NCBI RefSeq assembly: GCF_006345805.1
Contig: NW_021834041.1
Location: 1 to 27,236, forward strand
Length of the DNA: 27,236 nt
Reading direction: 5' to 3'
Source: Octopus sinensis
Taxonomy: Eukaryota
The translations under genes and the position numbers were made by a program. The notes under the pieces were generated by a model. It made no database searches. It was given only the letters and a program-made list of their open reading frames with translations, and was not told the DNA's origin. The first letter of the stretch is position 1, and each line of letters opens with the position of its first letter. This document shows positions 3,901 through 27,236 of the stretch, one piece after another.

Positions 3901-5125
3901 GTTATCTCTGAGCCATAAGCCAGGTTGATGTTTTTTGATTTTTAAAAAATTACTTTTATTTTTGGAGGGGATATTGTTTTCTTTACCTTTTATGCAAACT
4001 GTCGAATCTAGGCTGAATGTCCTCTGTGTGTATATGAGGAGGGACAGGGGTAGGAGGGAGATGATTTATGATTGATTCAGAATTAATTTCTTTCTACTTT
4101 AAATGACTCAAAACTTGAAATGTTCACCTTTCTACTACACAAGACAGAAATCAGGTAACATTCTCTCCTCAATTGATAAAAAATTTCTATTATCTATTTC
4201 ATACAAAATATGTCATTCGGATATCTGCTTTCATTTCAAGTTAATTAGAAACATATATTTTATTACTTGGTTCAGCCTTGATGACAGTAGTGTTATAAGA
4301 GATATATCTCCAGTCATTAATATAGCACCATGATGCAGAAAAAACGTAATTTTTACACAGAAATTTGTTTTAAAATAACAAATTTACAGTGAAATAATAA
4401 ATCTATAGGATATAAAGAGTAATTGCATTTGTTTATATCAATTTAAATCTCTGTTATGCACATAAAGAACATTTAATTTGCTAATTGTTATATGACTGCA
4501 ACACTATGACAGACTTAGAATAACAGTTGAATAAATTATAAATATCTTATGAAGAAATTAAATTACCAAACTATTGATATTAATGTTTTATATAGTTCGT
4601 CACTGCTAATATTTTAAATCAAATAAATATCTTAACAAATGTACTCATTTTGTCTGTCCTTCTCAAGATGGAATAAAACTAACCTTTCTGAAAATAATGC
4701 TCAAGATGAAATTAACAACCAGATATATTTTATTCATTACACACAAAGACACAGATAAGAACACATAGTCAAGTAAAAACACAGATAGACACTAATACAG
4801 GAAGCAGCCAGAATTATTAATAACTGTATTATTATGAAATTTGTGAAATTTAATAGAGAAATGCTATACTACTAAATATAGTTAAATGATTATTATGTGC
4901 AATAATTTATAAATACAAAGACTAAATATCTAATGGCCTCATTTCCTAGGAACAGAATGAGATATAATACTCATAACAAGTGAATGAAGATAATAAGGAT
5001 ATATAATTATGAAGAAAATTAATTATGTAAGTTTGAACATATATTCTTCATATTAAATGTTGTTTCTATAAAGGAAATCCTTGATAGCCATCATGGAAAG
5101 GAAGACTAATAAGAACTAACCCAAA

Positions 5126-5765
5126 TCTAATATGGCCACCATTAGAATATTACATTTTGAGGCTACAATACAAGCAAACATGAAATCATTATTTCACATA
5201 ATTTGAATAAATAATATGGAATAACAAACTTACCTTCATTGTGTGTAAAATCCTTTGTTGTATAAACTGTGACTTGGTCCCAATGTTCTGTTGTTAATGT
5301 TTGTCTGTGTCACTGCTGCTATGGTGTGACACTGGCTTCATGTTGATGGAATAGTGTTGGTGGTGAGTCAGTGGGAACCAGCAGTTCCCTCTCAAGTCTT
5401 CCTCTGTGGATGGGTGGTGTTTAGTGAGTGTGTGTGTATGCATGTAAGTGAGTGAGAGAGAGAGAGAGAAAGAGGGGAAGAGTGATGGGTGATGCTTACT
5501 CCAGCCTCACTCAGACTTGGTGTTGTGTTTTCCCTCCACAAAGAAAAGAGAGGGACAACAAACTATCAGCTCCACTAACAGTCAGCCATGATAAGTCTAT
5601 ATAACACCAACATGTCTGATGTGGAGAGAGACTGACATAGAAATCCTTAGAACAGAGAGGTTATATTAACAAAATATGGCTGATGCTGTTAATGTGTGTG
5701 TAATTTAAAATATAAACAGAATATTGATGATAATAGTTAGTGTGTCTGACCTAATTCTAAACTAA
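5126..5765 (-). promoter_or_regulatory. Third copy of the Pcdh promoter / first exon block (donor at 5234/5233), for a gene not seen in the window
   Basis: Homologous block with the identical core at 5551-5685. No cadherin exon in positions 1-5200. Confidence 0.62.
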
Positions 5766-5836
5766 CTCTCTCAATCAGGATTTGAAACTTTAAAGATGTA
5801 CTGATATGTATAGTAAATAAATTATATTTCCTGAAA

Positions 5837-6053
5837 TACTGGTCTCAAATTTTCGTACAAGGCTAGCAATTTGGGGTGAGAGAGTAACTCAACTGCATGG
5901 ACCGAGTACTCCACTAGTACTTATTTTATCAACCCTGAAAGGATGAAAGGTAAAGTCGACCGGGATGAAATCTGAACTCAGTATGCAAAGATGGACAAAA
6001 TGTTGCTAAACATTTCACCTGGTGTGCTAATAATTCTGCCAGCTCACTGTCTT
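5837..6053 (-). mobile_element. tRNA-derived SINE (same family as 21330-21543)
   Basis: Aligns with 21330-21543. Minus-strand head with B-box-like GAGTTCAGATT and shared core ccctgaaaggatgaaagg. Confidence 0.7.
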
Positions 6054-6539
6054 ATTTATTTCCTAAAATATTACCATGTAATATAATCCTTATTCAAGAT
6101 TTATATGGAATATACATGTAAACTGTCATCATCATCATCACTTAACATCTACTTTCCATGCTGGCATGGGCTGATATTTCCTCACATCCTAAAATTTAAT
6201 TAATAACTCATTAATAACACATTTTCAAAAGCATTTTTACTTTTAAATTTTATTTTACCAAGAGAAAAATTATTTTAAAATTTCCAAAAATGTTAATCTT
6301 ACCTAAGTTTATGTAATTACAGAGAGTTATATTTTGATTGAAACTTTTCATGCCTATAACTGATGGTTATTTTTTTCATCTGTAAAAACCTTCAAAGATT
6401 TATTTATAATATGTATAGTTTGAAATGCATAGAAAGGAATTCAGTCATATGAAAGCAATATCATGATGTAACTAATATATTTCTGCTGTTTTAAATGTTG
6501 TGTGAATGTTGAAGGTGATATTATTTCTGTTGTGTTAAC

Positions 6540-6661
6540 TTAACTGGCAACAACATCTGGTGTTGAAGGTAACTGTCTCTCTGGAGGTTTCACATATCTG
6601 TCTTGGTAATGGTCTCTCTCACTGGTGCTTGATACATCGGGTGGGGCACCACCATAGATTC
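6540..6661 (-). CDS. Pcdh: Protocadherin A terminal coding exon (GIYGGAPP...RQLPSTPDVVAS*)
   Basis: gtttcag|GA acceptor and TAA at 6542-6540. About 100 nt of downstream 3'UTR also aligns with B and C. Confidence 0.85.
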
Positions 6662-7897
6662 CTGAAACACACATATATATCAAATAAATGTATTGAATAA
6701 GTCACATAGTCAGTAGGTATTTTATGTCAGGGAAAAAAACTGTCAAACCTTTAAAAGAAATTTAGATGTGTTTTAATTGTACAATATATTATGTTGTTTA
6801 CTGATTTTAATTAAATAGTTCTGCTCCATTAGTTTCAAAAAGTATTATAAATCACACCACAATTACCTGTATATTGTGATGAACAACTAATTGTACATAA
6901 TGAAAAACAAGGGACTAATGATGAAAATACTGGACCAGGTTAAAATATATGAAATTAAGAACTTGACAAGGTGAGTAGATATATATCTGAATTTGAAGGA
7001 GATTCATCACAAGGGATAAGTTACAAAACTTAGTGTAAATAATAAATAAATACATAAATAATATATAAATATAGTGTAAATATGAAAATGTAGTATAATA
7101 ATATACAAAGAAATGTCACTCACAACAAAACCCATATCCAAAATATTTTTGTATTCATATAGACAGATTTTATAAAAGTCATTTTATCAATTGTATTTCC
7201 GCATCAGTTTAATAATTTATGTCCCTAACACTTAGCTGAATGGAACAAACACCATATTTTGTAGAAAAAAGTGCAATACCTTTTTAGATTCCTGTAAACT
7301 GTGTACTTATAACTACCAGAATATGAATAAGAATTGAATACTCTTGTAAATGTTCCTAATGTTAGGTTCTTGAAGATATTTTGTGAAATATAAACATAGT
7401 TCAGATCATGTAAATGTTTTCTGTTTTTTTCAGTGTTTAGAGTTAATTCTGGACAATACTGTGATAACCACCTAATGACATTTTATATTATGTAAATTGC
7501 ATTCACAATAACTTTTGAATAGATTACAGCGAGTTGAGCAACAGGATACATGTTTAAGTCAATGACAGTATGTAATATAGGGGAGGTCCTCTATACATCT
7601 TTGCTTTGTACAGGGAGATTTGGTGTGTATGTATAAAGTATTATATTGTCACTTTAAGTATATATTGGTATTTCTAAAAGTTTCCTTACAGCTTTCTATG
7701 TCGTGATTAGTTGATATATTTTAAGGAGAATACATTACATAATGTCACAAAGGCTGTTTCTAAAAAATCATGATTAGAATTCAGGATACGAATTTTATAT
7801 TAATTAACAGATTAAAGAGTTTCATGAGAGTGACTTCAAGAATGAGAGACATGATAATGAAATTAATAACAAATGCAAATGGCTGAGAGTGTTCTAC

Positions 7898-8051
7898 CTG
7901 ACATTGCTGGTATTTCTTCATACTGTCTACTTGACCGCTCACTCCAGCACTGTCCACTGCTCTTACGACTGGCCAGTGTGTCAGTGGGATAGTGAGAAGA
8001 TGGTCTGTTGTCTCCATAAGATGTCACCTCTATTGGTTGACTGTATTTCTG
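7898..8051 (-). CDS. Pcdh: Protocadherin A cytoplasmic exon (154 nt)
   Basis: ttttccag|CAG acceptor and G|gtagaa donor. 51 codons plus 1 nt, in frame. Confidence 0.88.
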
Positions 8052-8688
8052 CTGGAAAATACAATAGCAACAAAATATATTGTAATGGTATCATTTATAA
8101 ATGTGAACCTGTTACATAGCTAATTCTTAAATATTGATGGGTACATGTATGTAATAATATACTATTAACAAGCTATTCTTCCTAACTGCCCATATGAGCA
8201 CCTAACTAGAACAAGTTAACTAAAATTAGACACATCACAAATCATTATTTTATAGCTCACTCTGAAAAAGCAAATAGTGTCCATGGAATTTTTACATCTT
8301 CCTTTATTAGTTATACTACAAATTCATATTGTGCATGTGTCTGTATAATTGCCATACAAGCCTGGAGGCATCTGAACTGCTATATCAATAGTCTTCATAA
8401 AATTAGCAAAGATTCTATTGACAAATGGTAAGAACGTACAATGGTTAATTAAGTCACTGATGCTCTACAGTGTATGAATGAACCCTTGATACTCCTAATA
8501 GGGATTCTCTTGGATTTGAACAAGAAACAGAAGGCATTTGTCATCTCTGCACCATATCAGTAAATTCTTCAGAGCTAATCTAAACCAAAAGCATTTGGAC
8601 AGCAAACAGTATTCTTAAATTTCCAAAGAGGAAAGTAACTTTCATGTAAACATGGTGCCATCTAATAGTCAATCAAAATAAGGCTTAC

Positions 8689-11045
8689 CTTTGTAGACTT
8701 CTGAAGTGTTCTGTTCATCGTTGCTGTCTTCCAGTCTTCAGGATAGTAATGGCTCCTCGAATGACCATATCTGTCTGACATCTCTCCTCGATTACCTGAC
8801 ATCACAGGTACACTGTTGTTACCTTGATAGATCAACTGTCTCATCTCATTGCGGCATTGGTATGCCTGTTTCTCTTCTGCTGTTCTTTCAGATGAGCTAT
8901 TTCTCACATTGTTACATCTCACAATACACAGGGTTATAGAAACCACAATAGCTATAGATACTATCACAGCTGCTACTACAATGATAATCAACAATGTCGC
9001 ATCTATTGTGTTATCACTTGGTAGGTGCACAGCTGTGAACATTGGTGACGTCTTGTTACTAACAGTCAGTGTCAAAGACACACTAGTTGTTGCTGACAGA
9101 ACTGGAGTACCACTGTCTTTCACAACAAACTCAAGCTCATATGATCCAGCATCATTTTGGTAAACTGTGCGAGAGTAAGATAACACACCAGTGAACGAAT
9201 CCAGTTTAAATAACTGTCTCTCGTTACCTGAAACGATTTCATACCTGAGAAAAGCATTCATGTGACTGTCTATATCAGATGCTTTCAGAACTGTGATGTC
9301 GTTCTTACTTTGCGGATGATAGTGGACATTAAGAGTGAAAGGGTCAACACTAGGAAATGTAAAATATGGAGCATTATCATTTCTATCCAATACTTCCACT
9401 TCAACATTCACTGTGTTATTCAGAGATGGGCTTCCATTGTCTTTCACAAAAACCTCAAACTCATAGAAATCTCTGTGTTCTCTGTCTAAAGACTGGTTTG
9501 TTGAAATAAAGCCAGAGTTGATAATCTGGAATGGCAGACGATATTGCTGTTTATTTCTCAGAGAATAAGACAATTCACCTCCCTTACCAATATCTGGGTC
9601 TGTAGCATTGATAAAGCCAATAGGGAAATTAGCTTTGTCATTCTCATAGGTAAGGAACTTGAATGTGTCTTTCGTAAAGTGTGGTTCTACATCATTCACA
9701 TCCAACACTTGGATTGACAGATCTTTATCAGTTTTCAGAGCAGGTAATCCTTTATCTTCACACGACACAGTAAAGTGATAATGTTCCTGTGTCTCTCTGT
9801 CTACTGCTTTCTTTAGAACTATTTTATATTCCTTCGATCCCATTGACTGTAGTTTGAATGTGTCGTCTTTGATATGACAGTTCACCTGTCCATTGTGTCC
9901 AACATCGTTGTCAGTGACCATCACATAAGCAATGAAACTACCAACTTTGATGTCTTCCAGAATGGTAGCTGTGTTGTGATTCTGTGTAGAAATAAAATTC
10001 ACATCAATATTTGGGGGATTGTTGTGTTGGTTGATGACATTTACTATAACCGTTGCTATGGAACTCAGAGGAGGTGTGCCATCATCTCTGGCTTCAATGT
10101 ATATTTTAAAAGACTCTTCTTTATCAATTTCTGAAGATGTAGCTAAATATAATTTCCCAGTATTTTCATCTAAATTAAAATGTCTCTTCACTTTCTCAGT
10201 AGTTTTCCTGGCAAAGTAATATGATATTTTACCATTCCTGCCAATATCTAAATCATTGGCTAATAATGTGACTACTGGAATATTCTTTTTATGTTTATGT
10301 TCAATAGAGACATTGTAGATACTTTGAGAAAATTGTGGTGCATTATCATTTTCATCTTCCACAGATATTTTCACATTTAAAACAGATTGTTTTGGTGGGT
10401 TCCTCCATCTTTAGCAATGACTTCAATATCATAATTGTCCTTCTTTTCTCTGTCTAATTTCTCTTCTAAAATAATTCTTAACGTTGATATTTCATCAGTT
10501 TGTTTAGAAACTGATAAAGAAAAATGTCCATTATCTTTTTTTAATTCATAAGTAATTAAGTTGTTTTCTGGACTCATATCTTTGTCAATAGCATTAGGTA
10601 TGGGTTTCTTCATACCTTTACCATCTCCTTCCCTAAAATGTAGAGTAATTTCTTTCTGAGTAAACTCAGGTTGGTGGTCATTGATGTCTTCTATTATGAC
10701 TTTAATCTTTAAGATCTTCATAAATGTCTTGGATTTGTGAACAGCAACTTTAACGATTTCAAAACATTCTTTCTCATAACTACACACAGACTCAGCATCC
10801 AATGTCTCAACAGTGTACAGTTTACCTGTTCTCGTCACATTGAACAACTGTTCTCCCTTTTGTTGCAGTTGACTAAATGTAATTAAATCCTTATTCTTTA
10901 AGAAGGAGCTGTCTGATTTCTGTAAGTCAGTAGCAATGTCCCCTACATAGGTGTAGGGACTATTCTCTTCTTCAACATGGTATGTGATATCTTCACTTAG
11001 ATAACAGTGGAAGAAAGTCAGTAAAACACAGAGAAATAGCAACAT
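8689..11045 (-). CDS. Pcdh: Protocadherin paralogue A, large exon (signal peptide, EC1-EC6, TM, proximal tail) with one 1-nt frameshift at ~10398
   Basis: ORFs 10377-11153 and 8662-10374 join across ggtgggtt, where gene B has ggtggagtt. ATG at 11045 (MLLFLCVLLTFFHCYLS). Acceptor ttgtttcag| with exon start 11101, donor AAG|GTAAGC at 8689/8688. Confidence 0.92.
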
Positions 11046-11612
11046 TTCTGAACTTGATATTAACACAGTGTCCAGGAAAAAGGTGGTTTGTAAAATTAAA
11101 CCTGAAACAAAAAATATGTATCTCATATCAATAAGAAATGTATGGATTTGCAAACCAAGTTTCTTTTCTTTATTTCATTCATAAAAATATTTTCAATGAA
11201 GAGCAGCAATGCTACTCTTCTTAATATCATGTACAAGTGGACAAGAATTATATGACCAATTCTCACCAAATTTAATTATGTATATTAAGATTCAATGATT
11301 CATAGAATTTCTGAAGACTTAAAGAGTAAAAGTGGCACTTATTTCCAGATAAGTACTCTCAAACAAATATTAATCTGCCTAATTTTGAAGTAAATTAATT
11401 AAAGATGAGAAACGTGAATTGTGGGCAAGATCATAATTGATATTTTGACTCTCATTTTACAATGGAATCTAACTTCGCATCAATATTTTTACAGGTCAAA
11501 ATACAAATATTTTATGGAACTTTGAGTTATTTCCCTTAAACATGACAAACAATTTTAAGTCGAGCAATTATCAATGAAAATATGCTTAGTTATGTACTTT
11601 ACGTACGCACAG

Positions 11613-11671
11613 GTGTGTGTGTGTTTATGTGTGTGTGTGTGTGTGCTTGTGTGTGTGCTTGTGTGTGTGCT

Positions 11672-11710
<39 letters not shown>

Positions 11711-11769
11711 CACTTTCAGAATCTGGTTAATACATTTGTGATAATGCTATATATATATATATATATATA
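11613..11769. repeat. Compound microsatellite (GT)n/(GTGTGTGCTT)n/(TA)n
   Basis: Directly visible tandem repeats. Confidence 0.9.
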
Positions 11770-12670
11770 CAAAGCATTATCAAAATGTATTAACCAGTTT
11801 CAGAAAGTGCAATAATTATATGTTCATGAATTTTTAAAAATACACGTGAAATCGGACAATGAAGTTTCTAAGATTATTAAATAGTAATGATATGCTACCT
11901 GGTGGTTAGTTATTGATCAGTTTAAGATACTAAGCCAAATCGCTTTAACTCAACTCCAAGAAATAATTCCTGTCAATAGCACTAAATTCTAAAGAAATTA
12001 TGAACAAAAGAATTCTATAACATAATACTGTCCATTACTTGACTCATCTGTTTATTGAAGAAAAAAGTCTTACAACAAATTAGACCAGAAGTAAAGAAAA
12101 CATTCGTTTAGTAAGGTGAGTAAGACTTAGCTGATTACTTTAAACTTGATAGGTATGAGAGAATGGCATATACCTGTTTAAACGTCAAACTAATAATTTT
12201 AAATAAAGCCACCTAATGTAAATTTGACAATAATTAAATAATCAACAGATTTACAATTAATTGCGTCCTATAACTGAAAATGAAATAAAATTATGTAGAA
12301 AAAATCTAATATAAATACTTAATGAATGTATCTGAAATTAATTATTCTGAAATATGCATCAAATATTTGGAGACAACCTTTTTAGCGATCTGCAGGTGAA
12401 TGTTTGTTATCTGTGATAGACTAAATTATTTTTGTGTAAATCTATGTCAGCACTTCTTGAGCAAAATTATGATCAAAGCATTCCAACCATGACCATCCCA
12501 TAATTTTTCATATAGTGGTACATTACCATCATTAAAAAAACAATCAACAGATAAAGATTCACACTGGAACAGATAACAAGGAATAATTACCAAATCAATA
12601 CTCTTCATGCAGTTTTAATACCAGGTATTCCTAATGGATTTACTAAATTAACAAATTTTGATTAAAACAA

Positions 12671-13093
12671 GGTATAAGCTTGGTTGTGTGATTAAGAAGT
12701 TTGCTTCCCAATCACATGGGTTTGGGTTCAGTCCCACTGCACGGCATCTTAGACAAGTGTCTTCTACTATAGCTTCAGTCTGACCAAATGCTTGCAAATG
12801 GATTTGGTAGACAGAAACTGAATGAAAGAAACCCATCGTGTGTGTAAGTGTCTCTCCCTCTCTTCGTATTATGTGACAGTTGTAAAAGAGTGACACTGTT
12901 ATACAAGCAGTGAGGTTCTTTCCAATCATCTATTAAAACATGTCTGGCCAACAGTAAATATTACCTTATTTGGAAATAGGTGAGGTTTGGCAACAGGAAG
13001 GGCATTAGTCCATAGAAAATCTGACTCAATAAACATTTTCTGACCCATACAAACATGGAAAAGTGAATGTTAATAAAAACATGATGACAATGA
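12671..13093 (+). mobile_element. tRNA-derived SINE with LINE-like 3' end and degenerate (ATG)n tail
   Basis: A-box-like TGGTTGTGTGATT and B-box-like GGTTCAGTCCC. The 3' part (ggaagggcat...catggaaaagtg...atgatg) resembles the reverse complement of 20729-20870. Confidence 0.68.
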
Positions 13094-13459
13094 TCAAAGA
13101 ACATACTAGAAAATGTTAGAAACACTTCTGGGTTATTGCTGAAAACATATTAAGTATGTAAACTAAAAACAATCATTTACTGATCAACATTGGCCATACT
13201 TGTACATTGAATTTGTTAAACACATTTCATAGACAACCAATATGAAATATTACATCATGAATACTGTTCAGTGACTGAACAAAAGAAGTGAATACAAAAC
13301 TATACTCATCAATAACTCACGCAAAGCAATGAACATTTGCATCCACCCAAGACTAAACACACACACACACACACAATATACTATCAAAAGTAATAATGGT
13401 TTCTAACTAATATTCTTTTTCTTAATTAAAATTTCTTATATGAACATGAATTGCAATGA

Positions 13460-13494
13460 ATATATATATATATATATATATTATATATTATATA

Positions 13495-13527
<33 letters not shown>

Positions 13528-13530
13528 TAT
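13460..13530. repeat. Imperfect (TA)n microsatellite
   Basis: Directly visible. Confidence 0.9.
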
Positions 13531-13692
13531 AAAAAAGGCAGACAAGATAAACAGTGTGAAAACACAAAAGATAAGAGAATATGCTTTGAGCAGAATGCTA
13601 GTGACAAGGATTGAACACACTCACTTCACTCTCTGTTTTTCACAATCTTTTCCATAACCAACTCATAAAGACATTAAATGAGAACAAACAGA

Positions 13693-14345
13693 TCTAATAT
13701 GGCCACCATTAGAACGTTACATTTTGATAATATAATATGGTTATATATGAAATCATTATTTCACATAATTTGAATAAATAATATGGAATAACAAACTTAC
13801 CTTCATTGTGTAAAATCCTTTGTTGTATAAACTGTGACTTGGTCCCAATGTTCTGTTGTTAATGGTTGTCTGTGTCACTGCTGCTATGGTGTGACAATGG
13901 CTTCATGTTGATGGAATAGTGTTGGTGGTGAGTCAGTGGGAACCAGCAGTTCCCTCTCAGTCTTCCTTTGTGGATGGGTGGTGTTTAGTGAGTGTGTATG
14001 TGTATGAGAGAGAGGAGTATATGAGTGATGCTTACTCTAGCCTCACTCAGAAGTGATGCTTTCTCTAGCCTCACTCAGATTAAATGTTGCCTTTCCCCTC
14101 CACAAAGAAAGGAAAGAGAGGGAGAAAGGGACAACAAACTATCAGCTCCACTAACAGTCAGCCATGATAAGTCTATATAACACCAACATGTCTGATGTGG
14201 AGAGAGACTGACATAGAAATCCTTAGAACAGAGAGGTTATATTAACAAAATATGGCTGATGTTGTTAATGTGTGTGTAATTTAAAATGTAAATACAATAT
14301 TGACAATAACAGTTAGTGTCTGTCTGACCTAGTTCTAAATTAATT
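13693..14345 (-). promoter_or_regulatory. Conserved promoter / first exon block of Pcdh A (donor at 13801/13800)
   Basis: Homologous block. Donor 2.7 kb upstream of the gene A acceptor at 11101. Identical core at 14127-14261. Confidence 0.7.
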
Positions 14346-14736
14346 CTCCCATTTAGAATGTAAAATGGAGAGAAATCAAAACTGTGAAATAAAGTATTAT
14401 TTTTAAAATGTAATATCATCATTTTATTACTCAAATATATGTTATACAATTGTCTTATATTTGTTGCTTAAATATTTTCAATTTTAAATTGTATTTCACG
14501 AGTAAAAATGTCAATCTATAATTTCTTAGTCATTCCTTTATCTTTAGTTTACCTAACAGAGCTATAAATGTATTCCTCTTACCTAAGCTGTAAAATTATT
14601 GTCTGAAACACATACAAAGATATTCAGTCATATGTTGGCAATATTATTAACTAACTAATATATTTCTGTTGCTTTTAAATGTAGTGTGAATGTTGAAGGT
14701 GATATTATTTCTGTTGTGTTCCTTTCTCAGTCTCAC

Positions 14737-14858
14737 TTAACTGACAACAACATCTGGTGTTGAAGGTAACTGTCTCTCTGGAGGTTTCACATATCTGTCG
14801 TGGTAATGGTCTCTCTCACTGGTGCTTGATACATCAGGTGGGGCACCACCATAGATTC
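14737..14858 (-). CDS. Pcdh: Protocadherin B terminal coding exon (122 nt including TAA)
   Basis: gtttcag|GA acceptor. Translates GIYGGAPP...RQLPSTPDVVVS*. Confidence 0.85.
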
Positions 14859-15196
14859 CTGAAACATATATATCAATGGGTATTCAACGATTGACTTTAG
14901 TCAACAGTTCCTTCTTTTATATTAAGTGCTCTACAAAATAACTATTATAAAGAGATTAATACCTCACTATACGATTAGACCTATACAATCTTGAGCATAT
15001 TACGTGACAATTAACTAATAAATAAAAAGAGATTTACACTTTTAATTTATAAATTTAATTCATAGTGATAAAACTATTAGAAATAACATTTTGGAAGTGC
15101 TCAAAATCCTAGTGTTTGTTTAGACTTCACTCCCAGACATATCAATGGGATAAATGATAAACACACCAAAAACATAGGTAAATGTGAATGTTTTAC

Positions 15197-15350
15197 CTGA
15201 CATTGCTGGTATTTCTTCATACTGTCTGCTTGACCGCTCACTCCAGCACTGTCCACTGCTCTTACGACTGGCCAGTGTGTCAGTGGGATAGTGAGAAGAT
15301 GGTCTGTTGTCTCCATAAGATGTCACCTCAATGGGTTGACTGTATTTCTG
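15197..15350 (-). CDS. Pcdh: Protocadherin B cytoplasmic exon (154 nt)
   Basis: ctaacag|CAG acceptor and G|gtaaaa donor. Near-identical to the A and C copies. Confidence 0.88.
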
Positions 15351-17007
15351 CTGTTAGAGAAAACAAAAAACAACAATGACTTGATTTGTCCAAGAAAAAC
15401 ATTTGGGAATTCTGGATGCTTACTGTTTTGGGGTGTAAAGGTTAGGGTGTGTGGTTAGTGTGAGATATGGGAGAGGAGACCATGGTAAAAGTTTTGAGAC
15501 TGGAATGAGTTTTCAGCAAGCTATTCATAGAAAGAGTCCATGGCAGTGGTAAGAGAAGAAGAAATGAGAAGGAACATCTCAGACGCAGACGTTAGTGCAT
15601 TGCTTAGTGAGTCTTCACTGATCACTAAAAGAAACATTGTTTGAAAATTTTTCAAGTCAACACTAAGATGCAGAAGGTAGCTAAGAGATTTTAGATAATT
15701 ATAACTACACATCTATTGAAGAGAAGAAATAAGTGCCATAATGATAAATTATTGCCAAGAAAGAAGGATACCTCATGAAATATTAACTATTTAACATTAA
15801 TTAAAAATCAAGGATGTTTGTGTGTGAAGTAGCAGTGATAACATTTCAGCTTTATAGGTCAAGGCATGTGAGATCATTAGATTCGAGGATTTTGATAAAA
15901 ACTTCACACAAACACAACTCAAGAAGCTTCTATTCAACCTAAAACACTCACAAAATATTCTTTGTTTCCTTACAAGAAGTAGTGGTCTTAGATCCATTAT
16001 TTTTAGAAAAAGAACAGGATAGCCACAATCTATACGTTCATTCTTCCAGTTATGTTGCATCTCCATATATTGATGGACCATATCACTTTGACTCTGCTTT
16101 TCTACTTTCACTTACAGAAGCCTCAACTCTCAGAGGTCCCACCCTGGGCGACTCATCTTACTCATCTCTTCTCCTCTAGTCAATCGTATTGCCAGCCTTT
16201 CTGCACCCTACAACGACCACTTAATCTTTCTGCCACAGCACATTTTCCCCACTGAAATTCACTCTACTCCCATACTTCTCCAGCTGTTTTATACCAGTAA
16301 TTGCTCAAGAGAGTATGCCACATTAACCTCAATTGTGAGGGTCAAGGACACAGTCCCTACATCTGGTAAAAACCCTTATGTAACAGAAAAAAAAACTTGT
16401 ATATTTATATGCCAGTGTAATGATTTATTTAAATATTGAATGTTGTTACAGTCAAATAATAATAAAATATCACAGACATTTGGTGTAGATGAGCAACATA
16501 ACATACCAGAAATAACAATTTCTACTCTCAACTCATAATTCTAAAAGAGTACAAAATAAACTAAAACTAAATTCTGAATTAGAAGCAGCTCTAATACTAT
16601 AAACATAATTGATGTCACAAACTTAATAATTGTGTTTAGTTTGAAGAGTTACAAGTCACAGGATTTCATCCATGGAAAGTTTCTTTAAGGCATACGTTGA
16701 AGAACACTGAATACTTCAAAACCAAACAAAACAGATGAAATACACAATTGATAATGTTATACAAACATTGTTGGATAATAATTATGGAAATAATATCTAA
16801 AACTATATTTATGAAAATATAAAGATTACACTAAAAGTATAAATGAAGTTGTTCTCCAGAGGAGATTTAAGAGAATACCGAAATAGAAGATTAATACATA
16901 TTTTCATGCTTTTTGGCAAACTTCAGTTCAATGTCAATGTCTTCTATTCAAATAGTTCTTAATTGAACATTAACTACTAACAAACACTCAATCCAAATAT
17001 ATCTTAC

Positions 17008-19351
17008 CTTTGTAGACTTCTGAAGTGATCTGCTCATTGTTGATGTCTTCCAGTCTTCAGGATAGTAATGGCTCCTCGAATGACCATATCTCTCTGACAT
17101 CTCTCCTCGATTACCTGACATCACAGGTACACTGTTGTTACCTTGATAGATCAACTGTCTCATCTCATTGCGACATTGGTATGCCTGTTTCTCTTCTGCT
17201 GTTCTTTCAGATGAGCTATTTCTCATATTGTTACATCTCACAATACACAGTGTTATAGAAACCACAATAGCTATAGATACTATCACAGCTGCTACTACAA
17301 TGATAATCAACAATGTTGCATCTATTGTGTTATCACTTGGTAGGTGCACAGCTGTGAACATTGGTGACGTCTTGTTACTAACAGTCAGTGTCAAAGACAC
17401 ACTAGTTGTTGCTGACAGAACTGGAGTACCACTGTCTTTCACAACAAACTCAAGCTCATATGATCCGGCATCATTTTGGTAAACTGTGCGAGAGTAAGAT
17501 AACACACCAGTGAACGAGTCCAGTTTAAATAACTGTCTCTCGTTACCTGAAACGATTTCATACCTGAGAAAAGCATTCATGTGACTGTCTATATCAGATG
17601 CTTTCAGAACTGTGATGTCGTTCTTGCTTTGCGGATGATAGTGGACATTAAGAGTGAAAGGGTCAACACTAGGAAATGTAAAATATGGAGCATTATCATT
17701 TCTATCCAATACTTCCACTTCAACATTCACTGTGTATTCAGAGATGGGCTTCCATTGTCTTTCACAAAAACCTCAAACTCATAGAAATCTCTGTGTTCTC
17801 TGTCTAAAGACTGGTTTGTTGAAATAAAGCCAGAGTTGATAATCTGGAATGGCAGACGATATTGCTGTTTATTTCTCAGAGAATAAGACAATTCACCTCC
17901 CTTACCAATATCTGGGTCTGTAGCATTGATAAAGCCAATAGGGAAATTAGCTTTGTCATTCTCATAGGTAAGGAACTTGAATGTGTTTCGTAAAGTGTGG
18001 TTCTACATCATTCACATCCAACACTTGGATTGACAGATCTTTATCAGTTTTCAGAGCAGGTAATCCTTTATCTTCACACGACACAGTAAAGTGATAATGT
18101 TCCTGTGTCTCTCTGTCTACTGCTTTCTTTAGAACTATTTTATATTCCTTCGATCCCATTGACTGTAGGTTGAATGTGTCATCTTTGATATGACAGTTCA
18201 CCTCTCCATTGTGTCCAACATCATTGTCAGTGACCATCACATAAGCAATGAAACTACCAACTTTGATGTCTTCCAGAATGTGGCTGTGTTGTGATTCTGT
18301 GTAGAAATAAAGTTCACATCAATATTTGGAGGATTGTTGTGTTCATTGATGACATTTATTGAACGATTGCCAGAGAACTGAGAGGGGAAATACCATTATC
18401 CCTGGCTCCAATATAATTTAAAATTCTTCTTTCCAAACTCTATTGATTTAGCTAAATATACACTCCTGTATTTTCATTCAAATGAAAATATTTTCTCATC
18501 TTCACATCAGTTTTCTGACTGAAATAGAAAGATATTTTACCATTCCTGCCAATATCTAAATCACTGGCAGATAATGTGACAACTGGAATATTCTTTTTAT
18601 GTTTATGTTCAATAGAGACATTGTAGATACTTTGGGAAAATTGTGGTTTATTATCATTTTCATCTTCCACAGATATTTTCACATTTAAAACAGATTGTTT
18701 TGGTGGAGTTCCCCCATCTTTAGCAATGACCTCAATATTGTAGCTGTCCTTCTTTTCTCTATCTAATTTATCTTCTAAAATAATTTCTAATGTTGATATT
18801 TCATCAGCTATTTTTGATTGGGATAAGGAAAAATGTCCATCACCATGTAATACATATTTGATTAAACTGTTCTGATTACCCATATCTTTATCAATGGCAT
18901 TAGGTATCATCTTTTTCATACCTTTACCATCACCTTCACCAAAGATCAGTGTAATTTCTTTCTGAGGAAACTTAGGCTGGTGGTCATTGATGTCTTCTAT
19001 TATGACTTTAATCTTTAAGATCTTCATAAATGTCTTCGATTTGTGAACAGCAACTTTAACGATTTCAAAACATTCTTTCTCATAACTACACACAGACTCA
19101 GCATCCAATGTCTCAACAGTGTACAGTTTACCTGTTCTCGTCACATTGAACAACTGTTCTCCCTTTTGTTGCAGTTGACTAAATGTAATTAAATCCTTAT
19201 TCTTTAAGAAGGAGCTATCTGATTTCTGTAGGTCAGTAGCTATGTCCCCTATATATGTATAGGGACTATTCTCTTCTTCAACATGATATGTGATATCTTC
19301 ACTTGAATAACAATGAGAAAATGTCAATAAAATACAGAGACACAACAGCAT
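17008..19351 (-). CDS. Pcdh: Protocadherin paralogue B, large exon (EC1-EC6, TM, proximal tail); several frameshifts as assembled (pseudogene or sequence error)
   Basis: ORF fragments 18452-19387, 17962-18240 and 16948-17730 are collinear with gene C. Signal-peptide ATG at 19351 (MLLCLCILLTFSHCYS). Acceptor ttttacag| with exon start 19396, donor AAG|GTAAGA at 17008/17007. Small deletions at ~17735, ~17987, ~18280, ~18360 and 18400-18470. Confidence 0.88.
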
Positions 19352-20728
19352 CTCTGGTCGTGATGTCCAGGAATTTGGTAGCTTCACATTATTAATCTGT
19401 AAAATAAATAGATAGCTTGTAGTGGGAAGAAATAAAAAACATATTGTGAAAGACTATTTTAGTAATGAATAAATAATCTCCTTCTTATAAGAAAACATAC
19501 CAAAAGTAGGACTGAAGTAAAGTATCCCAGGGGGAACTTACTGCTCACTAAATATACATTGTCTGCCATATATTTTATGGCAAGTTGAAGATCTTTACTT
19601 AATCTGAAATTGTCTTTGCAATAGTAATGAGAAGGCAATAATTTGGACAACTAATTCATATGATTTAACAGGTTCTTCTCATAAGTCAGATAACTTGAGA
19701 CTACTTAAACAGCGCAGTTTCTTATTCTAATAATTTATTGTAATTAATCTTATAAAATATTGTTCAAAGTGACATTCATTATAAAACTGCTCCAATTTGC
19801 CAAACTTCATAAAGATAATAACCACCACATTCCCATACTCTCAAAATAATTAACTGATTAAAAATTATTATACAAGTTGCTGAAACTTCAACATAGACAT
19901 TACAGACTTCACGAAAAATTATAAAATATGACAAAATAATTATAGGTTTTGTTTATAGCCTAATGGGAAAATAATGTTTCCTTCAGTTATACAGCCTAAA
20001 TTGAGTTCGCTCCCTTGAACAGCATTACCAATAGCAAACGAAATTATTTTGCATTGAGTTTCTCTTATTTCTTTGGTCCCCGAATGAAAATGTAAATATA
20101 TGTAAAATAATTATCGGTAACGCTTTTCTGCAAATAACTCAACGTAATTCACAAGAACACAGTAGAATACATAAGTGGGCAAGAGTGTATTTGTGCATGT
20201 GTGCAATAAATTCAATGTTATTTTGTTGTTATATTATACGTTAATTACTGATAAAACTATATTTGTTGATGTGACATTGTTTAAAAAATATTAGTATACT
20301 ACAAATAATGTAATAGTCAGGAAATCATTGTCAGACATGCAAAGGGTAAAGTTTAAGGCAGGAATATGTGGTTACAACAATTCTGCTAGAACAGAAGAGA
20401 TGAAAAACAAAATATAAATTCAAACCACATACAATTTGTCTGACGGTTATAATGGCACCAAAGATGGACATCTGGTCATCATTCACAAAACACTATGATA
20501 ATATTAAGAAGCAGATATTCCAGAATAGAGAAGATATAAACTAGAAGCTATTTAAATGACAAATTTAGAAAAGTCATTTAGTGAAATGAAGTTATGGAAA
20601 CCAAACAAATATTCACTTTTCAACCATAAAATTAAATCATTATCAATCAATATGGCCTTTTTATATTACAATATCTATCATTCAGTTCCAGTTATATTGC
20701 AATAACATAGTAATGGCAAAGATAATAT

Positions 20729-20870
20729 CATCATCATCATCATCATCATCGTTTATAACGTCCATCTTCCATTCTAGCACGGGTGGGACGGAATCACAAG
20801 AGCCTGCACCAGACTTCTGTGACTGTTTAGGCAGGATTTTTACAGCTGGATGCCCTTCCTAACACCAACC
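20729..20870 (-). mobile_element. 3' fragment of a SINE/LINE with (ATG)n tail
   Basis: (CAT)n run followed by acgtccatcttccattctagcacggg...ggatgcccttcct. A shorter related tail lies at ~6127-6173. Confidence 0.55.
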
Positions 20871-21129
20871 ACTTGTAATTTTTTTGGAAGTTACGTTCTA
20901 CACTAATTCCTGATAAAACTATATTTATTGATGTGACATATTTCTGTCTTAACCTTTACCTGTTCCATGTCCCAATGCTACATGACATTGATGCCTCTGT
21001 CTGACAATGCTTTTTCATGGATGTAACATTATGTGTTGTATACTAATATTTTTTAAATAATGTCACATCAACAAATATGGTTCTATAAGTAATTAGTGTA
21101 TAATATAACTTCACAAAAAATTACAAGTG
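20870..21129. mobile_element. Inverted-repeat (MITE/foldback-like) element with ~70-bp arms
   Basis: 20870-20939 (cacttgtaattttt...gatgtgaca) is an imperfect reverse complement of 21061-21129. A third related arm lies at 20228-20299. Confidence 0.6.
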
Positions 21130-21329
21130 ACTATTTTTTTAAATTTTGTAAAACAACTCTACACTAAATTGATAGAGGACATGCTTGAGATGACATTTTT
21201 TAAAATATCCGATTATGATGAATATCATACCAATATTTTTTTAAGTTTCACACAGCAGGTATGGTTCATTAGCTTAGAAATAATCCTAGGTAGATGAATT
21301 CGAAATTTATAAATGTAAGGACTAATAAT

Positions 21330-21543
21330 CTTTACTATTGTAGGCACAAGGCCTGAAATCTGGGGATAGGGAGCTAGTCATTTACATCAACCCCAGTGTT
21401 CAAGTGGCACTTGTATAACTGACCCCAAAAAGATGAAGGGTAATGTTGGCCTAGGTGGAATTTGAACTCAGAATGTAAAGACAGCCAAAATGCCACTAAG
21501 CATTTCATCTGGCATGCTAATGATTCAGCCAGTTCCCTGCCTT
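21330..21543 (-). mobile_element. tRNA-derived SINE
   Basis: Minus-strand A-box-like TGGCTGAATCA and B-box-like GAGTTCAAATTCC. Homologous to 5837-6053. Confidence 0.7.
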
Positions 21544-21614
21544 AAATTAAAGAAGTAATAATGAAACAAGACAAGATATACAGAAATTAACCAATTAATG
21601 TATTTAGACAAACA

Positions 21615-21637
21615 AACACACACACACACACACACAC
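21615..21637. repeat. (AC)n microsatellite
   Basis: Directly visible. A similar (AC)n run lies at ~13357-13376. Confidence 0.85.
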
Positions 21638-22036
21638 TTAAACATCATAAAACACATAAAAATACATACAACAATATCGATATCAATTTTTATTCATACT
21701 TTTCTTTCTTGTTACTACACAGTCAAATGTTAGTTTTATAATATATTTTATTATATTATTACTATAATTTCATACATATGGAAATAGTCTGCCACCGAAA
21801 TATTTCAGAGAAATTCCTATAAAATGTCTGTATCAATTTATCAGTACACAATCATTTAGAAGAAACTAGTTAAGAATAAGGAAACAAGTACATGAAAACC
21901 TGGGAACATTAAAAATATAGTATATTGAAATAATGGACATTATATTCCTAAACAGTTTTTCTTTTCCTAGAGCTGTTCTCAAAATATTCAACAGCCAACG
22001 TCTGAAAAGAAGACATTCAATATGAACTGACACAGA

Positions 22037-22662
22037 TCTAATATGGCCACCATCAGAATATTACATTTTCATATTACAAGAAGGCTACATATGAAATCAT
22101 TATTTCACGTAATTTGAATAAATAATATTGAACAATAGACTTACCTTCATTGTGTGAAATCCTTTCTTGTATAAATTGTGACTTGGTCCCAATGTTCTGT
22201 TGTTAATGGTTGTCTGTGTCACTGCTGCTATGGTGTGACAATGGCTTCATGTTGATGGAATAGTGTTGGTGGTGAGTCAGTGGGAACCAGCAGTTCCCTC
22301 TCAGTCTTCCTTTGTGGATGTGTGATGTTTAGTGAGTGTGTGCATGGGTTTGAGTGAGAGACAGAGAGAGGAAGAGAGATGGGTGATGCTCACTCCAGCC
22401 TCACTCAGACTTGATGTGTTTTCCCTCACAATGAAAAGAGAGGGACAACAAACTATCAGCTCCACTAACAGTCAGCCATGATAAGTCTATATAACACCAA
22501 CATGTCTGATGTGGAGAGAGACTGACATAGAAATCCTTAGAACAGAGAGGTTATATTAACAAAATATGGCTGATGTTGTTAATGTGTGTGTAATTTAAAA
22601 TGTAAATACAATATTGACAATAACAGTTAGTGTGTGTGTGTCTGACCTAATTCTAAACTAAA
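22037..22662 (-). promoter_or_regulatory. Conserved promoter / first exon block of Pcdh B (donor ATGAAG|GTAAGT at 22145/22144)
   Basis: One of three homologous blocks. Strong donor 2.75 kb upstream of the gene B acceptor at 19396. Contains the identical 135-bp core at 22441-22575. Confidence 0.7.
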
Positions 22663-23084
22663 TCTCCTTTCTAGAAAATTTAAGGCTGCCATGTAAACTA
22701 TATTTATATTTAAAATGTAATGGAGGCATTTTACATCATAAAGTTGTTGATATTTATTGCTTGAGACATTTTTTAATGTCAAACTTTACTTCACTGGGAG
22801 GAATATATATCAGTGATTTCTTCCAATATTGCATTTACCTTTCGTTTACCTAACAATAGAGTGGTGTGAATTGATTAATCAGAACAATTGATGCTATATC
22901 AGTTTTATCTGCAGAAACCTACCCCAGATGTACACATTTCAAATAATTTGTCAGAAATACATACAAAGATATTCAGTCGTATGTTGGCAATATTATTTAC
23001 TAACTAATATATTTGTGTTGTTTTAAATGTTGTGTGAATGTTGAAGGTGATATTATTTCTGTTGTGTTCCTTTCTCAGTCTCAC

Positions 23085-23505: not shown

Positions 23506-23659
23506 CTGACATTGCAGGTATTTCTTCATACTGTCTACTTGACCGCTCACTCCAGCACTGTCCACTGCTCTTACGACTGGTCAATGTGTCAGTGGGATAG
23601 TGAGAAGATGGTCTGTTGTCTCCATAAGATGTCACCTCAATGGGTTGACTGTATTTCTG
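23506..23659 (-). CDS. Pcdh: Protocadherin C cytoplasmic exon (154 nt; QKYSQPIEVTSYGDNRPSSH...QYEEIPAMS)
   Basis: ttttacag|CAG acceptor and G|gtaaaa donor. Open in phase with the upstream exon and conserved in all three paralogues. Confidence 0.88.
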
Positions 23660-24787: not shown

Positions 24788-24893
24788 GTGATTCTGATAT
24801 AAAGGAACAGTGATTCTGATATAAATTAATAAACTTGATCATTTTTAATTAAATGCTATTTACTGCAAGACTGATAATTGAAATAAAACTTAC

Positions 24894-27236
24894 CTTTGTG
24901 GACTTTTGAAGACTTCTGCTCATTGTCGATGTCTTCCAGTCTTCAGGATAGTAATGGCTCCTCGAATGACCATATCTCTCTGACATCTCTCCTCGATTAC
25001 CTGACATCACAGGTACACTGTTGTTACCTTGATAGATCAACTGTCTCATCTCATTGCGACATTGGTATGCCTGTTTCTCTTCTGCAGTTCTTTCAGATGA
25101 GCTATTTCTCACATTGTTACATCTCACAATACACAGGGTTATAGAAACCACAATAGCTATAGATACTATCACAGCTGCTACTACAATGATAATCAACAAT
25201 GTCGCATCTATTGTATTATCACTTGGTAGGTGCACAGCTGTGAACATTGGTGACGTCTTGTTACTAACAGTCAGTGTCAAAGACACACTAGTTGTTGCTG
25301 ACAGAACTGGAGTACCACTGTCTTTCACAACAAACTCAAGCTCATATGATCCGGCATCGTTTTGGTAAACTGTGCGAGAGTATGATAACACACCAGTGAA
25401 AGAGTCCAGTTTAAATAACTGTCTCTCGTTACCTGAAACGATTTCATACCTGAGAAAAGCATTCATGTGACTGTCTATATCAGATGCTTTCAGAACTGTG
25501 ATGTCGTTCTTACTTTGCGGATGATAGTGGACATTAAGAGTGAAAGGGTCAACACTAGGAAATGTAAAATATGGAGCATTATCATTTCTATCCAATACTT
25601 CCACTTCAACATTCACTGTGTTATTCAGAGATGGGCTTCCATTGTCTTTCACAAAAACCTCAAACTCATAGAAATCTCTGTGTTCTCTGTCTAAAGACTG
25701 GTTTGTTGAAATAAAGCCAGAGTTGATAATCTGGAATGGCAGACGATATTGCTGTTTATTTCTCAGAGAATAAGACAATTCACCTCCCTTACCAATATCT
25801 GGGTCTGTAGCATTGATAAAGCCAATAGGGAAATTAGCTTTGTCATTCTCATAGGTAAGGAACTTGAATGTGTCTTTCGTAAAGTGTGGTTCGACATCAT
25901 TCACATCCAACACCTGGATTGACAGATCTTTATCAGTTTTCAGAGCAGGTAATCCTTTATCTTCACACGACACAGTAAAGTGATAATGTTCCTGTGTCTC
26001 TCTGTCTACTGCTTTCTTTAGAACTATTTTATATTCCTTCGATCCCATTGACTGTAGTTTGAATGTGTCGTCTTTGATATGACAGTTCACCTGTCCATTG
26101 TGTCCAACATCATTGTCAGTGACCATCACATAAGCAATGAAACTACCAACTTTGATGTCTTCCAGAATGGTAGCTGTGTTGTGATTCTGAGTAGAAATAA
26201 AATTCACATCAATATTTGGAGGATTGTTGTGTTGGTTGATAACATTTATCTGAATTATTGCAATGGAACTGAGAGGAGGAATTCCATTATCTTTGGCTTT
26301 CACATATAATTTAAATGATTCTTTCTTACCAAAATTTATAGGTTTTTCAAGAAATAACTTTCCAGTACTTTTATCTAAATGAAAGTATTCTTTTATCGTT
26401 TCATCAGTTTTCTGACTGAAATAGAAAGATATTTTACCATTCCTGTCAATATCTAAATCACTGGCAGATAATGTGACGACTGGAATATTCTTTTTATGTT
26501 TATGTTCTATAGAGACATTGTAGATACTTTGAGAAAATTGCGGTTTATTATCATTTTCATCTTTTACAGATATTTTCACATTTAGCACAGACTGCTTTGG
26601 TGGACTTCCCCCATCTTTACCAATAACCTCAATATTGTAGTTGTCTTTCTTTTCTCTGTCTAATTTATTTTCTAAAATAATTTCTAAAGTGGAAATTCCA
26701 TCTGCTTCTTTAGAAACACTTAATGAAAAATAGTTACCTCCACCATTTAAGTCATAATTAATTAAGCTGTTTTGGTAACCTTTATCTTTGTCGATGGCAT
26801 TAGGTATGGTTTTCTTCATACCTTTACCATCTCCTTCTCTGAAATGTAGTGTGATTTCTTTCTCAGGAAACTCAGGTTGGTGGTCATTGATGTCTTCTAT
26901 TATGACTTTAATCTTTAAGATCTTCATAAATGTCTTGGATTTGTGAACAGCCACTTTAACGATTTCAAAACATTCTTTCTCATAACTACACACAGACTCA
27001 GCATCCAATGTCTCAACAGTGTACAGTTTACCTGTTCTCGTCACATTGAACAACTGTTCTCCCTTTTGTTGCAGTTGACTAAATGTAATTAAATCCTTAT
27101 TCTTTAAGAAGGAGCTGTCTGATTTCTGTAAGTCAGTAGCAATGTCCCCTACATAGGTATAGGGACTCTTCTCTTCTTCAATATGATATGTGATATCTTC
27201 ACTTGAATAACAATGAGAAAAAGTCAATAAAATACA
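24894..27236 (-). CDS. Pcdh: Protocadherin paralogue C, large exon (signal peptide cut by window edge, EC1-EC6, TM, proximal cytoplasmic tail); reading frame intact
   Basis: 792-aa ORF with six cadherin repeats (DINDHQP, DENDNKP, DVNDVEP, DRNDNAP linkers; LDRE motifs), EC1 Cys-X5-Cys (CSYEKEC) and TM LLIIIVVAAVIVSIAIVVSITLCIV. Phase-0 donor AAG|GTAAGT at 24894/24893. By comparison with gene B the start codon lies just beyond 27236. Confidence 0.95.

Follow-up and report, generated by a model that had tools for sequence, protein, structure and literature searches.

A 135-nt element held identical ahead of tandem octopus protocadherin genes is a candidate shared core promoter

Introduction

Upstream of the small first exon of each unit in a tandem array of Octopus sinensis protocadherin genes stands the same 135-nt element, which we propose as a candidate core promoter of each array gene, common to all of them, and which is probably kept identical in this role by selection together with gene conversion. 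Cephalopods have 150–300 protocadherins, and what is gained for the study of their regulation is a defined candidate cis-element, a first exon and the prediction of no gating by CTCF or CpG, in other words a concrete place to study the choice that octopus neurons would make from these genes. A review from 2023 expected vertebrate-like stochastic control in cephalopods and noted that there are no functional cohesin data for spiralians (PMC10658181).

Results

The protocadherin array

The window, i.e., the whole 27 kb stretch that was analyzed, consists of whole protocadherin genes of the octopus repeated in tandem, with a unit of ~8.3 kb, in which the order is always the 135-nt element, a linker, a small exon 1, an intron, a large cadherin exon and two 3' exons belonging to that gene (Table 1). 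These are genes of the coleoid tandem-array type, head-to-tail whole genes with six cadherin repeats, a TM and a multi-exon tail, and their proteins are 88–92% identical to O. sinensis "protocadherin beta-15-like" models. No 3' exon is common to genes B, C, and D, in agreement with the available portions of PMC9068888. The frameshifting deletions in the large exon of gene C are likely read errors. The three genes are distinct from one another in EC2-3, and the possibility of a redundant haplotig of the chromosome models was unsupported (best non-self EC2-3 matches of 91.6–93.7% among 157 proteins). A search of the window for tRNA genes gave none, and a dispersed SINE-like repeat at ~12.7–13.0 kb attracts hundreds of loose contig ends.

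Only ~0.8–1.3 kb separate the stop of one gene from the next exon 1 donor, and the conserved sequence within this gap is limited to the first ~110 nt of the 3'UTR and a block of ~660 nt that contains the element; AATAAA occurs upstream of each block and never within the blocks. The initial annotation had described most intronic sequence as unalignable, and so it is, since spacers (0.29/0.29/0.55 vs. 0.27/0.29/0.53 in shuffles) and the body of intron 1 (0.58 vs. 0.58) align like shuffled sequence, except for the short intron 2-3 of genes C and D (0.63 vs. 0.52 shuffled).

Table 1. Coordinates of the element, its surrounding block, motifs and gene features in the window.
Feature	Position	Strand	Other copies and remarks
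Element copy 1	5551..5685	-	855 nt beyond gene B stop
Element copy 2	14127..14261	-	476 nt beyond gene C stop; ahead of gene B exon 1; covered by X19 record 29
Element copy 3	22441..22575	-	510 nt beyond gene D stop; ahead of gene C exon 1
Conserved upstream flank	14262..14350	-	5686-5772, 22576-22668; 13/87 columns variable
CT/CA-rich linker, variable length	13997..14126	-	5433-5550, 22341-22440; bridged by X1 record 7 and X19 record 28
Conserved 3' part of exon 1, ending ATG AAG/GTAAGT	13801..13996	-	5234-5432, 22145-22340; 12/196 columns variable
Conserved first ~120 nt of intron 1	13679..13800	-	5113-5233, 22023-22144
TATA-like TATATAG (putative function)	14173..14179	-	5597-5603, 22487-22493
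Inr-like TTAGT, candidate start site	14150..14154	-	5574-5578, 22464-22468
YY1/Pho-type core GCCATATT inside element	14249..14256	-	5673-5680, 22563-22570; 8/9 letters of CGCCATNTT
Second YY1/Pho-type core GCCATATT, conserved start of intron 1	13696..13703	-	5129-5136, 22040-22047
Gene B large exon (signal peptide, EC1-6, TM, part of tail)	8689..11101	-	1-nt gap near 10399
Gene B cytoplasmic exon	7898..8051	-	Paralogous exons 15197-15350, 23506-23659; gene C copy has spliced contig joints
Gene B last coding exon, to stop	6540..6661	-	Paralogous 14737-14858, 23085-23206
Gene C large exon	17008..19396	-	Six frameshifting 1-2 nt deletions
Gene D large exon	24894..27236	-	Truncated by window end
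AATAAA, candidate gene C poly(A) signal, upstream of block	14423..14428	-	Gene D 22753; gene B 6055, 6249, 6399

The element and its block

The three copies, which the initial annotation had reported as letter-for-letter identical, do match at 135/135 positions, and the match is not extendable in either direction. A 20-nt piece of the element has three matches in the window at up to three mismatches and none in 100 shuffles. All three copies lie 296–326 nt upstream of an exon 1 donor, and for two of them the downstream coding exon falls in the window, the remaining 5.2 kb downstream of copy 1 containing no Pcdh coding exon. What had been annotated as a putative first exon next to the element is a real exon 1, found in RNA contigs (see below).

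Two features had been missed. One is the ~660-nt block, of which the element forms the invariant core; copy 1 of the block is 87–89% identical to the other two, and the block comprises the element, the CT-rich linker, a nearly non-coding exon 1 ending in ATG AAG before the GT, and ~120 nt of intron. The linker, likely the 5' part of exon 1, has indels and 50/100 variable columns. Besides, when the three-way identical tracts are ranked by length the element comes fifth, after four coding tracts of 252, 164, 143, and 137 nt; because of these longer tracts and the evident gene conversion, its identity is by itself unremarkable. The MK of exon 1 opens three database models (P0006, P0007, and P0129), and the exon 1 splice product of gene C matches P0007 at 40/42 residues.

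A coding role for the element was ruled out (only frames of 4–13 aa, three short ones led by ATG), as was an RNA hairpin or structured ncRNA such as a miRNA or snoRNA, with fold z values of -0.71 and -1.42 and no Rfam family at threshold, the best result being one match with E 0.72 and 18.5 bits against a gathering value of 50. Scanning metagenomes with a DNA pattern yielded 0 matches, and with a protein alignment 324 pattern matches, 0 of them confirmed.

Candidate motifs

TATATAG and TTAGT, to which the initial annotation had drawn attention, are both present at the spacing it gave, the A of TTAGT being placed 27 nt after the first T of TATATAG. The pair appears in 21/3,000 shuffles of the element, and the pattern, a loose one, also at 10 other places of the window. 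Two YY1-type cores in like orientation, 523–553 nt apart, bracket exon 1, both without the leading C of the YY1/Pho consensus CGCCATNTT (taken from PMC1904287). The CGCT box is absent from the three blocks, and none of them has a CTCF core at two or fewer mismatches to a 13-nt consensus, which agrees with the earlier remark that no full CTCF motif was recognized. There is no CpG in the element, and the blocks hold 0, 1, and 1 compared to ~23 expected.

RNA contigs

None of the listed runs is registered as RNA, and X1 and X19 were treated as such solely because their contigs carry GT-AG joints; two DNA-like runs are without them. Exon 1 is present in spliced RNA, with X1 record 6 spanning 13826–13959 of this exon with zero differences and an X1 joint (10805–13807, letters between not known) bridging intron 1 to connect exon 1 with the cadherin exon. 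Some RNA does cross the element: record 29 of X19 (546 nt) spans it whole, covering 14123–14323 and extending 343 nt further upstream, and in X1 a joint connects the block (14314) with 3'UTR-like sequence (14474). Read-through PCDH transcripts have been reported (PMC9712504). A further copy of the element in X19 has two differing letters over 201 nt, including 62 nt of flank.

Two RNA contigs end at 14150, within TTAGT, and were rejected as start-site evidence, because the next X19 contig starts ~30 nt back, which is compatible with a branching of the graph into shared sequence. In the 3'UTR, two contigs end before AATAAA, at 14445 and 14470, different places that give a weak hint only. In both RNA-like runs contig depth dips upstream of the element, rises in exon 1 and is near zero in introns, while in the DNA-like runs the element has a much lower depth than the SINE-like repeat; since contig depth neither ranks parts nor tells copy number, it was kept out of the evidence.

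Selection and gene conversion

Four-fold sites are variable at 22/43 positions in EC2-3 vs. 10/171 in EC4-tail (p = 4e-11); the divergence of EC2-3 contrasts with homogenization by conversion in part of EC1 and EC4-tail. In the EC2-3 tree 10 genus changes are required, against a mean of 10.9 in shuffles, with starred pairs crossing genera and lineages that span Octopus and Argonauta. In contrast, the EC4-cytoplasm proteins cluster by genus, the EC4-tail tree needing one genus change (0/500 shuffles), with 12 near-fixed genus differences and a support of 66 for the genus split in a quick tree. This is a side result, maybe of equal weight: conversion is limited to the same domains as in vertebrates, where EC2-3 are also diverse and EC4-6 homogenized by conversion (PMC4978886), and is thus a pointer to convergent selection for EC2-3 specificity. 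A "recent" protocadherin burst was dated to 8–14 Ma from distances (PMC9795677), and our data suggest that this dating could partly reflect conversion, should the present subfamily belong to that burst.

The element has 0/135 variable sites vs. the 10/171 of converted coding four-fold sites (Fisher p = 0.003), a comparison of three copies whose 135-nt edges were set after the fact. Runs of at least 135 invariant columns appeared in 4/20,000 shuffles of the block columns, which assume an independence that conversion tracts violate. Taken together with its flank (13/222 variable columns) the element equals the converted four-fold sites (p = 1.0). Being more invariant than these sites while the adjoining spacers are saturated, the element is likely under selection, and purifying selection acting together with ongoing gene conversion between paralogues is the likely way in which identity is kept.

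Discussion

Weighing of alternatives

In the proposed explanation, which we consider more likely than not, the upstream gene (C or D) would mostly end at the AATAAA located 70–90 nt before the block, part of the transcripts would read through into the next unit, and polymerase would restart in or near the element, with its TATA-like site, the TTAGT 27 nt further on and the two YY1-type cores. The retained homology would let conversion go on copying the block, from which spacers and introns escape. The element could act instead at the level of RNA or termination, as part of a long 5' leader or of a read-through or bicistronic transcript, or as a terminator or insulator shielding the next gene. 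The RNA contig running through the element and upstream of it, the joint of 3'UTR-like sequence to the block, the read-through PCDH transcripts in the literature (PMC9712504), the fused database models P0127, P0129, and P0143, the distance of <1 kb between genes and the three short ATG-led frames would all suit such a role. However, there is neither a stable fold nor an Rfam family at threshold, AATAAA lies upstream of the blocks and not inside them, and the promoter would be left with unconserved spacer or linker only, and we regard this role as rather unlikely. Somewhat less probable still is that a recent conversion tract left the perfect identity behind as a neutral by-product, the true promoter consisting of a few short motifs or residing in the linker. 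Conversion is strong in these genes, longer identical tracts exist and the element with its flank shows the variability of converted four-fold sites; but those longer tracts are coding, with most sites fixed by the protein, an indel-bearing linker separates the element from exon 1, exon 1 itself is less invariant (Table 1), the neutral spacers that adjoin the element are saturated and the further X19 copy is nearly unchanged well into its flank.

We give very little credence to the idea that the element truly corresponds to the vertebrate CSE, as a CTCF-bound and methylation-gated site for enhancer–promoter choice. The constant position ahead of each clustered Pcdh would fit it, CTCF sites have been reported at the TAD borders of one squid and cohesin-type control has been proposed for cephalopod PCDH clusters (PMC10658181), and even alpha CSEs of zebrafish and Xenopus are without CGCT according to the available part of PMC4978886. 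Against it stand the missing CGCT box and CTCF core (consensus with up to two mismatches), the CpG depletion and the separate origin of the octopus clusters, as given in the available portions of PMC9068888 and PMC4978886. It is equally hard to believe in an assembly artefact or in a dispersed repeat that has no connection with the genes. The contig does have indel errors, but the three copies all occupy the homologous place of their unit, with no other in the 27 kb, their flanks differ, as do the three genes in EC2-3, an independent run contains the element, and loose ends gather at the repeat at ~12.7–13.0 kb, with none at the element among the 24 listed (there are 1,484 more). Of the idea put forward in the initial annotation, a shared Pcdh promoter element whose copies could compete for a shared enhancer in a choice system analogous to that of vertebrates, the fixed place in each unit and an invariance beyond conversion alone have stood, and the likeness to the CSE has not, given also that each gene has its own 3' exons.

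Comparison with other recognition systems

In vertebrates, clustered Pcdh genes are served by a distal enhancer with reverse CTCF sites and cohesin looping, and their expression is stochastic and sparse per neuron. Here as there, a conserved element precedes each member at a constant distance (PMC7811963, PMC4978886), and a like-oriented motif pair surrounds the likely start, CSE plus eCBS in vertebrates and two YY1-type cores in octopus. However, in vertebrates the ATG of the large exon is preceded at ~200 bp by the CSE, a short CTCF site whose CGCT box is sensitive to methylation (PMC7811963, PMC4978886), whereas the octopus element has 135 identical nt and no CpG and is followed by a small, separate exon and 2.7 kb of intron. 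The constant parts come from shared exons in the vertebrate alpha and gamma clusters and from conversion in octopus, and from the literature available the clusters are not orthologous.

The coleoid sub-arrays described by Albertin et al. (2022; PMC9068888) and Jiang et al. (2022; PMC9795677) are, as here, head-to-tail multi-exon whole-gene duplicates that do not splice to shared constant exons, and gene conversion has been suggested for them too. The available portions of these accounts present no promoter element, small first exon or domain-by-domain conversion pattern, and the word "promoter" occurs 0 times in the two main texts. Another invertebrate tandem array of recognition molecules with a promoter per unit is found in the shortened Dscam of chelicerates, whose 5' cassettes stand in tandem and are chosen through their promoters (cited in PMC6339937); this is a different protein family in which choice has been reported, while the octopus units are whole genes and their promoters candidates.

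If the element is the shared core promoter, regulatory input would be the same for all paralogues and their differences would lie mainly in EC2-3, and selection per cell would therefore have to come from position or chromatin, and not from promoter sequence or from CTCF and CpG methylation. From identical promoters one would expect co-regulation no less than choice, and stochastic choice among these genes seems doubtful to us. It is similarly speculative that octopods have rebuilt a barcode, in which interchangeable CpG-free promoters with paired YY1-type sites would compete, conversion would make a "constant" EC4-tail, EC2-3 lineages predating the Octopus–Argonauta split would confer specificity and each neuron would express a random subset of the sub-array, without CTCF or methylation. 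In published data ~21/172 PCDH were expressed per neuron, some being ubiquitous and some enriched in cell types (PMC9712504).

The Protocadherin Array

Self-comparison of the window revealed three units spaced about 8.3 kb apart, each with one minus-strand protocadherin in which a large exon, containing the signal peptide, six cadherin repeats (EC1-6), and a transmembrane segment, is followed by two small tail exons and then the stop codon. Among the best 120 of 1,902 protein matches, the top ones were models from Octopus sinensis, O. vulgaris, O. bimaculoides, and Argonauta hians, and two O. sinensis models are identical to genes B and D in EC3 or EC2-3. The 24 EC2-3 segments from 24 chromosome models represent 15 types which, added to the three genes of the window, give a subfamily of at least about 18 members. 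Several database models (P0127, P0129, P0143, P0152, and P0005) merge two to five adjacent paralogues, through either read-through or annotation error. Compared to gene D, frameshifting deletions of 1–2 nt are found in gene B (10399) and gene C (17735, 17986, 18280, 18360, 18411, and 18460); all are deletions, and they are likely long-read errors rather than marks of pseudogenes. An extra A at 10398, possibly paralogue-derived, appears in contigs of all four runs mapped here (see below).

Coordinates of the main features of the array
Feature	Positions	Strand	Remark
Gene B large exon	11101-8689	minus	
Gene C large exon	19396-17008	minus	
Gene D large exon	24894-27236	minus	cut by window end
Conserved ATG AAG closing exon 1	13801-13806, 22145-22150, 5234-5239	minus	
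135-nt element	5551-5685, 14127-14261, 22441-22575		three copies

A Conserved Block and a First Exon

The 135-nt element described in the initial annotation is indeed letter-identical in its three copies, the match being maximal in all of them; only four three-way identical tracts are longer, all coding. It lies within a block of ~660 nt (copy 1 is 87–89% identical to the others) comprising, in transcript sense, a flank of ~90 nt followed by the element, then a linker rich in CT/CA, a stretch of ~196 nt that closes with ATG AAG/GTAAGT, and ~120 nt of intron. Spacers and intron bodies are mostly at shuffle level, in line with the earlier remark that most intronic sequence does not align. We regard the block as real and its function as probably that of a promoter. 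Past copy 1 there are 5.2 kb (1–5233) without any protocadherin coding remnant, the first introns of genes B and C measuring 2.7 kb; this may be a long intron, an orphan promoter, or the array edge.

The putative first exon just downstream of the element proved real on the evidence of contigs, a splice joint, and database models. Contigs of four of the 23 listed runs were mapped onto 10000–17100, and the figures that follow come from the contig pieces, differences, and joints listed. GT-AG joints for the tail introns are present in X1 and X19, the contig sets treated as RNA, and absent from two DNA-like runs. X1 covers 13826–13959 with zero differences, and its joint from 13807 to 10805 (the letters between are not known) spans intron 1 into the cadherin exon. 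The ATG AAG of exon 1 is in frame with gene C, the spliced product matching 40 of 42 residues of the O. vulgaris model P0007, and the fused model P0129 begins like exon 1, with the same MK start. The gene B model P0006 starts at exon 1 via an optional 76-nt exon (12488–12563) that restores the frame; spliced directly, gene B has a three-codon upstream frame from ATG AAG. With its ATG AAG splicing in frame, the first exon is nearly but not entirely non-coding, and the frame differences could possibly reflect paralogue-specific translational control.

Gene Conversion and the Identity of the Element

The distribution of variation shows gene conversion to be active in the array. Among the window genes, 22 of 43 four-fold sites are variable in EC2-3 vs. 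10 of 171 from EC4 to the tail. The trees comprise gene D and the 35 best of the 120 listed proteins, with the two halves of the fused model P0005 entered separately; the Octopus rows include some orthologues besides the paralogues, and models spanning near-identical exons can be chimeric. In the EC2-3 tree (37 rows) Octopus and Argonauta are interleaved, with starred cross-genus pairs and 10 label changes against a shuffled mean of 10.9, whereas in the EC4-tail tree (35 rows, the P0005 halves being too short) the genera separate with a single label change (none of 500 shuffles had so few) and are distinguished by 12 near-fixed differences; the support for the split is 66 in this quick tree. 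Within-genus distances are 0.30–0.40 in EC2/EC3 and 0.002–0.027 in EC4/EC5. Across genes B, C, and D plus P0001-P0035, homogenisation within each genus affects EC4-tail and part of EC1, while the signal peptide and EC2-3 remain diverse and span the Octopus-Argonauta split; this fits old paralogues repeatedly homogenised outside EC2-3. The same EC2-3-sparing homogenisation is described for vertebrate clusters (PMC4978886). Dating of a recent expansion from distances could be biased by such domain-restricted concerted evolution.

Much of the element's identity can be put down to tandem duplication and conversion, and a neutral conversion tract would agree with the element plus flank, variable at 13 of 222 columns and no different from converted four-fold sites. 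However, the element itself has no variable column out of 135, which makes it less variable than those four-fold sites (p=0.003) and also less so than exon 1, where 12 of 196 columns vary, in a comparison of only three copies with edges picked post hoc; when the 423 block columns were shuffled 20,000 times, an invariant run of at least this length appeared 4 times. We find a purely neutral tract improbable: conversion alone seems insufficient, and selection together with conversion is the best fit.

Transcription and Candidate Promoter Motifs

Contigs of both RNA-like runs bridge exon 1, linker, and element. Since X19 record 29 spans the entire element and continues 343 nt upstream into unlike sequence, and an X1 joint connects 3'UTR-like sequence with the block, some RNA crosses the element, consistent with the PCDH read-through transcripts noted in PMC9712504. 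AATAAA precedes the block in each upstream gene and is absent inside all three blocks scanned. The preceding stop codon is 476–855 nt from the element, so there would be no other conserved place for a shared promoter.

The proposed TATATAG and TTAGT are present 27 nt apart; such a pair occurs in 21 of 3,000 shuffles but also has 10 further occurrences elsewhere in the window. The suggested analogy with the conserved element of vertebrate clustered promoters (CSE), defined in PMC7811963 by CGCT, a CTCF core, and CpG, found no support: CGCT is absent from all blocks, no CTCF core occurs in any block within two mismatches (the initial annotation had likewise recognised no full CTCF motif), and the element has zero CpG. 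CGCT is also missing from some fish and frog CSEs (PMC4978886). The octopus block would work partly like the vertebrate system, yet is not a CSE family member. AANATGGC has eight matches in the window, six of them in blocks (3.0 expected by chance), which amount to two independent positions, the element and the conserved intron start; both are candidate YY1 sites with 8 of 9 letters of the consensus CGCCATNTT (PMC1904287). Fold and family searches of the element returned no RNA structure or RNA family.

On balance we favour the element as the core promoter of each gene, with a candidate start. The upstream gene would usually terminate ahead of the block, with polymerase restarting within the element or close to it; exon 1 is spliced onto the cadherin exon, and conversion would go on copying the block because selection keeps its homology. 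The same promoter sequence implies the same inputs, which allows random choice and equally predicts co-expression. Published single-cell figures (~21 PCDH per neuron, some ubiquitous, some type-enriched; PMC9712504) do not discriminate between them. Neither the protocadherin arrays nor the proposal of conversion is new, cephalopod conversion in general having been suggested by Albertin 2022 (PMC9068888); in the protocadherin and cephalopod literature available we found neither the block nor, for octopods, domain-restricted conversion described, although Albertin 2015, Noonan 2004, Wang and Ragsdale 2017, or large supplements may cover them.

Other Repeats in the Window

Intron 1 of gene B contains a dispersed repeat (~12690–13070) that collects hundreds of loose-ended contigs and that we take to be SINE-like. 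Presumably also SINE-like are another repeat, whose two copies at non-homologous sites (5857–6054 and 21346–21544) are 71% identical, and a segment of higher GC content whose end resembles a tRNA (~24450–24790). At 2692–3150, a 128-aa frame without Pfam match, with (ATT)n and (GAT)n tracts behind it, resembles the 3' portion of a LINE reverse transcriptase. Finally, 107-nt inverted arms (20218–20324 and 21013–21119), 84% complementary and 688 nt apart, are MITE-like, with a third partial copy of the arm at 20870–20939.
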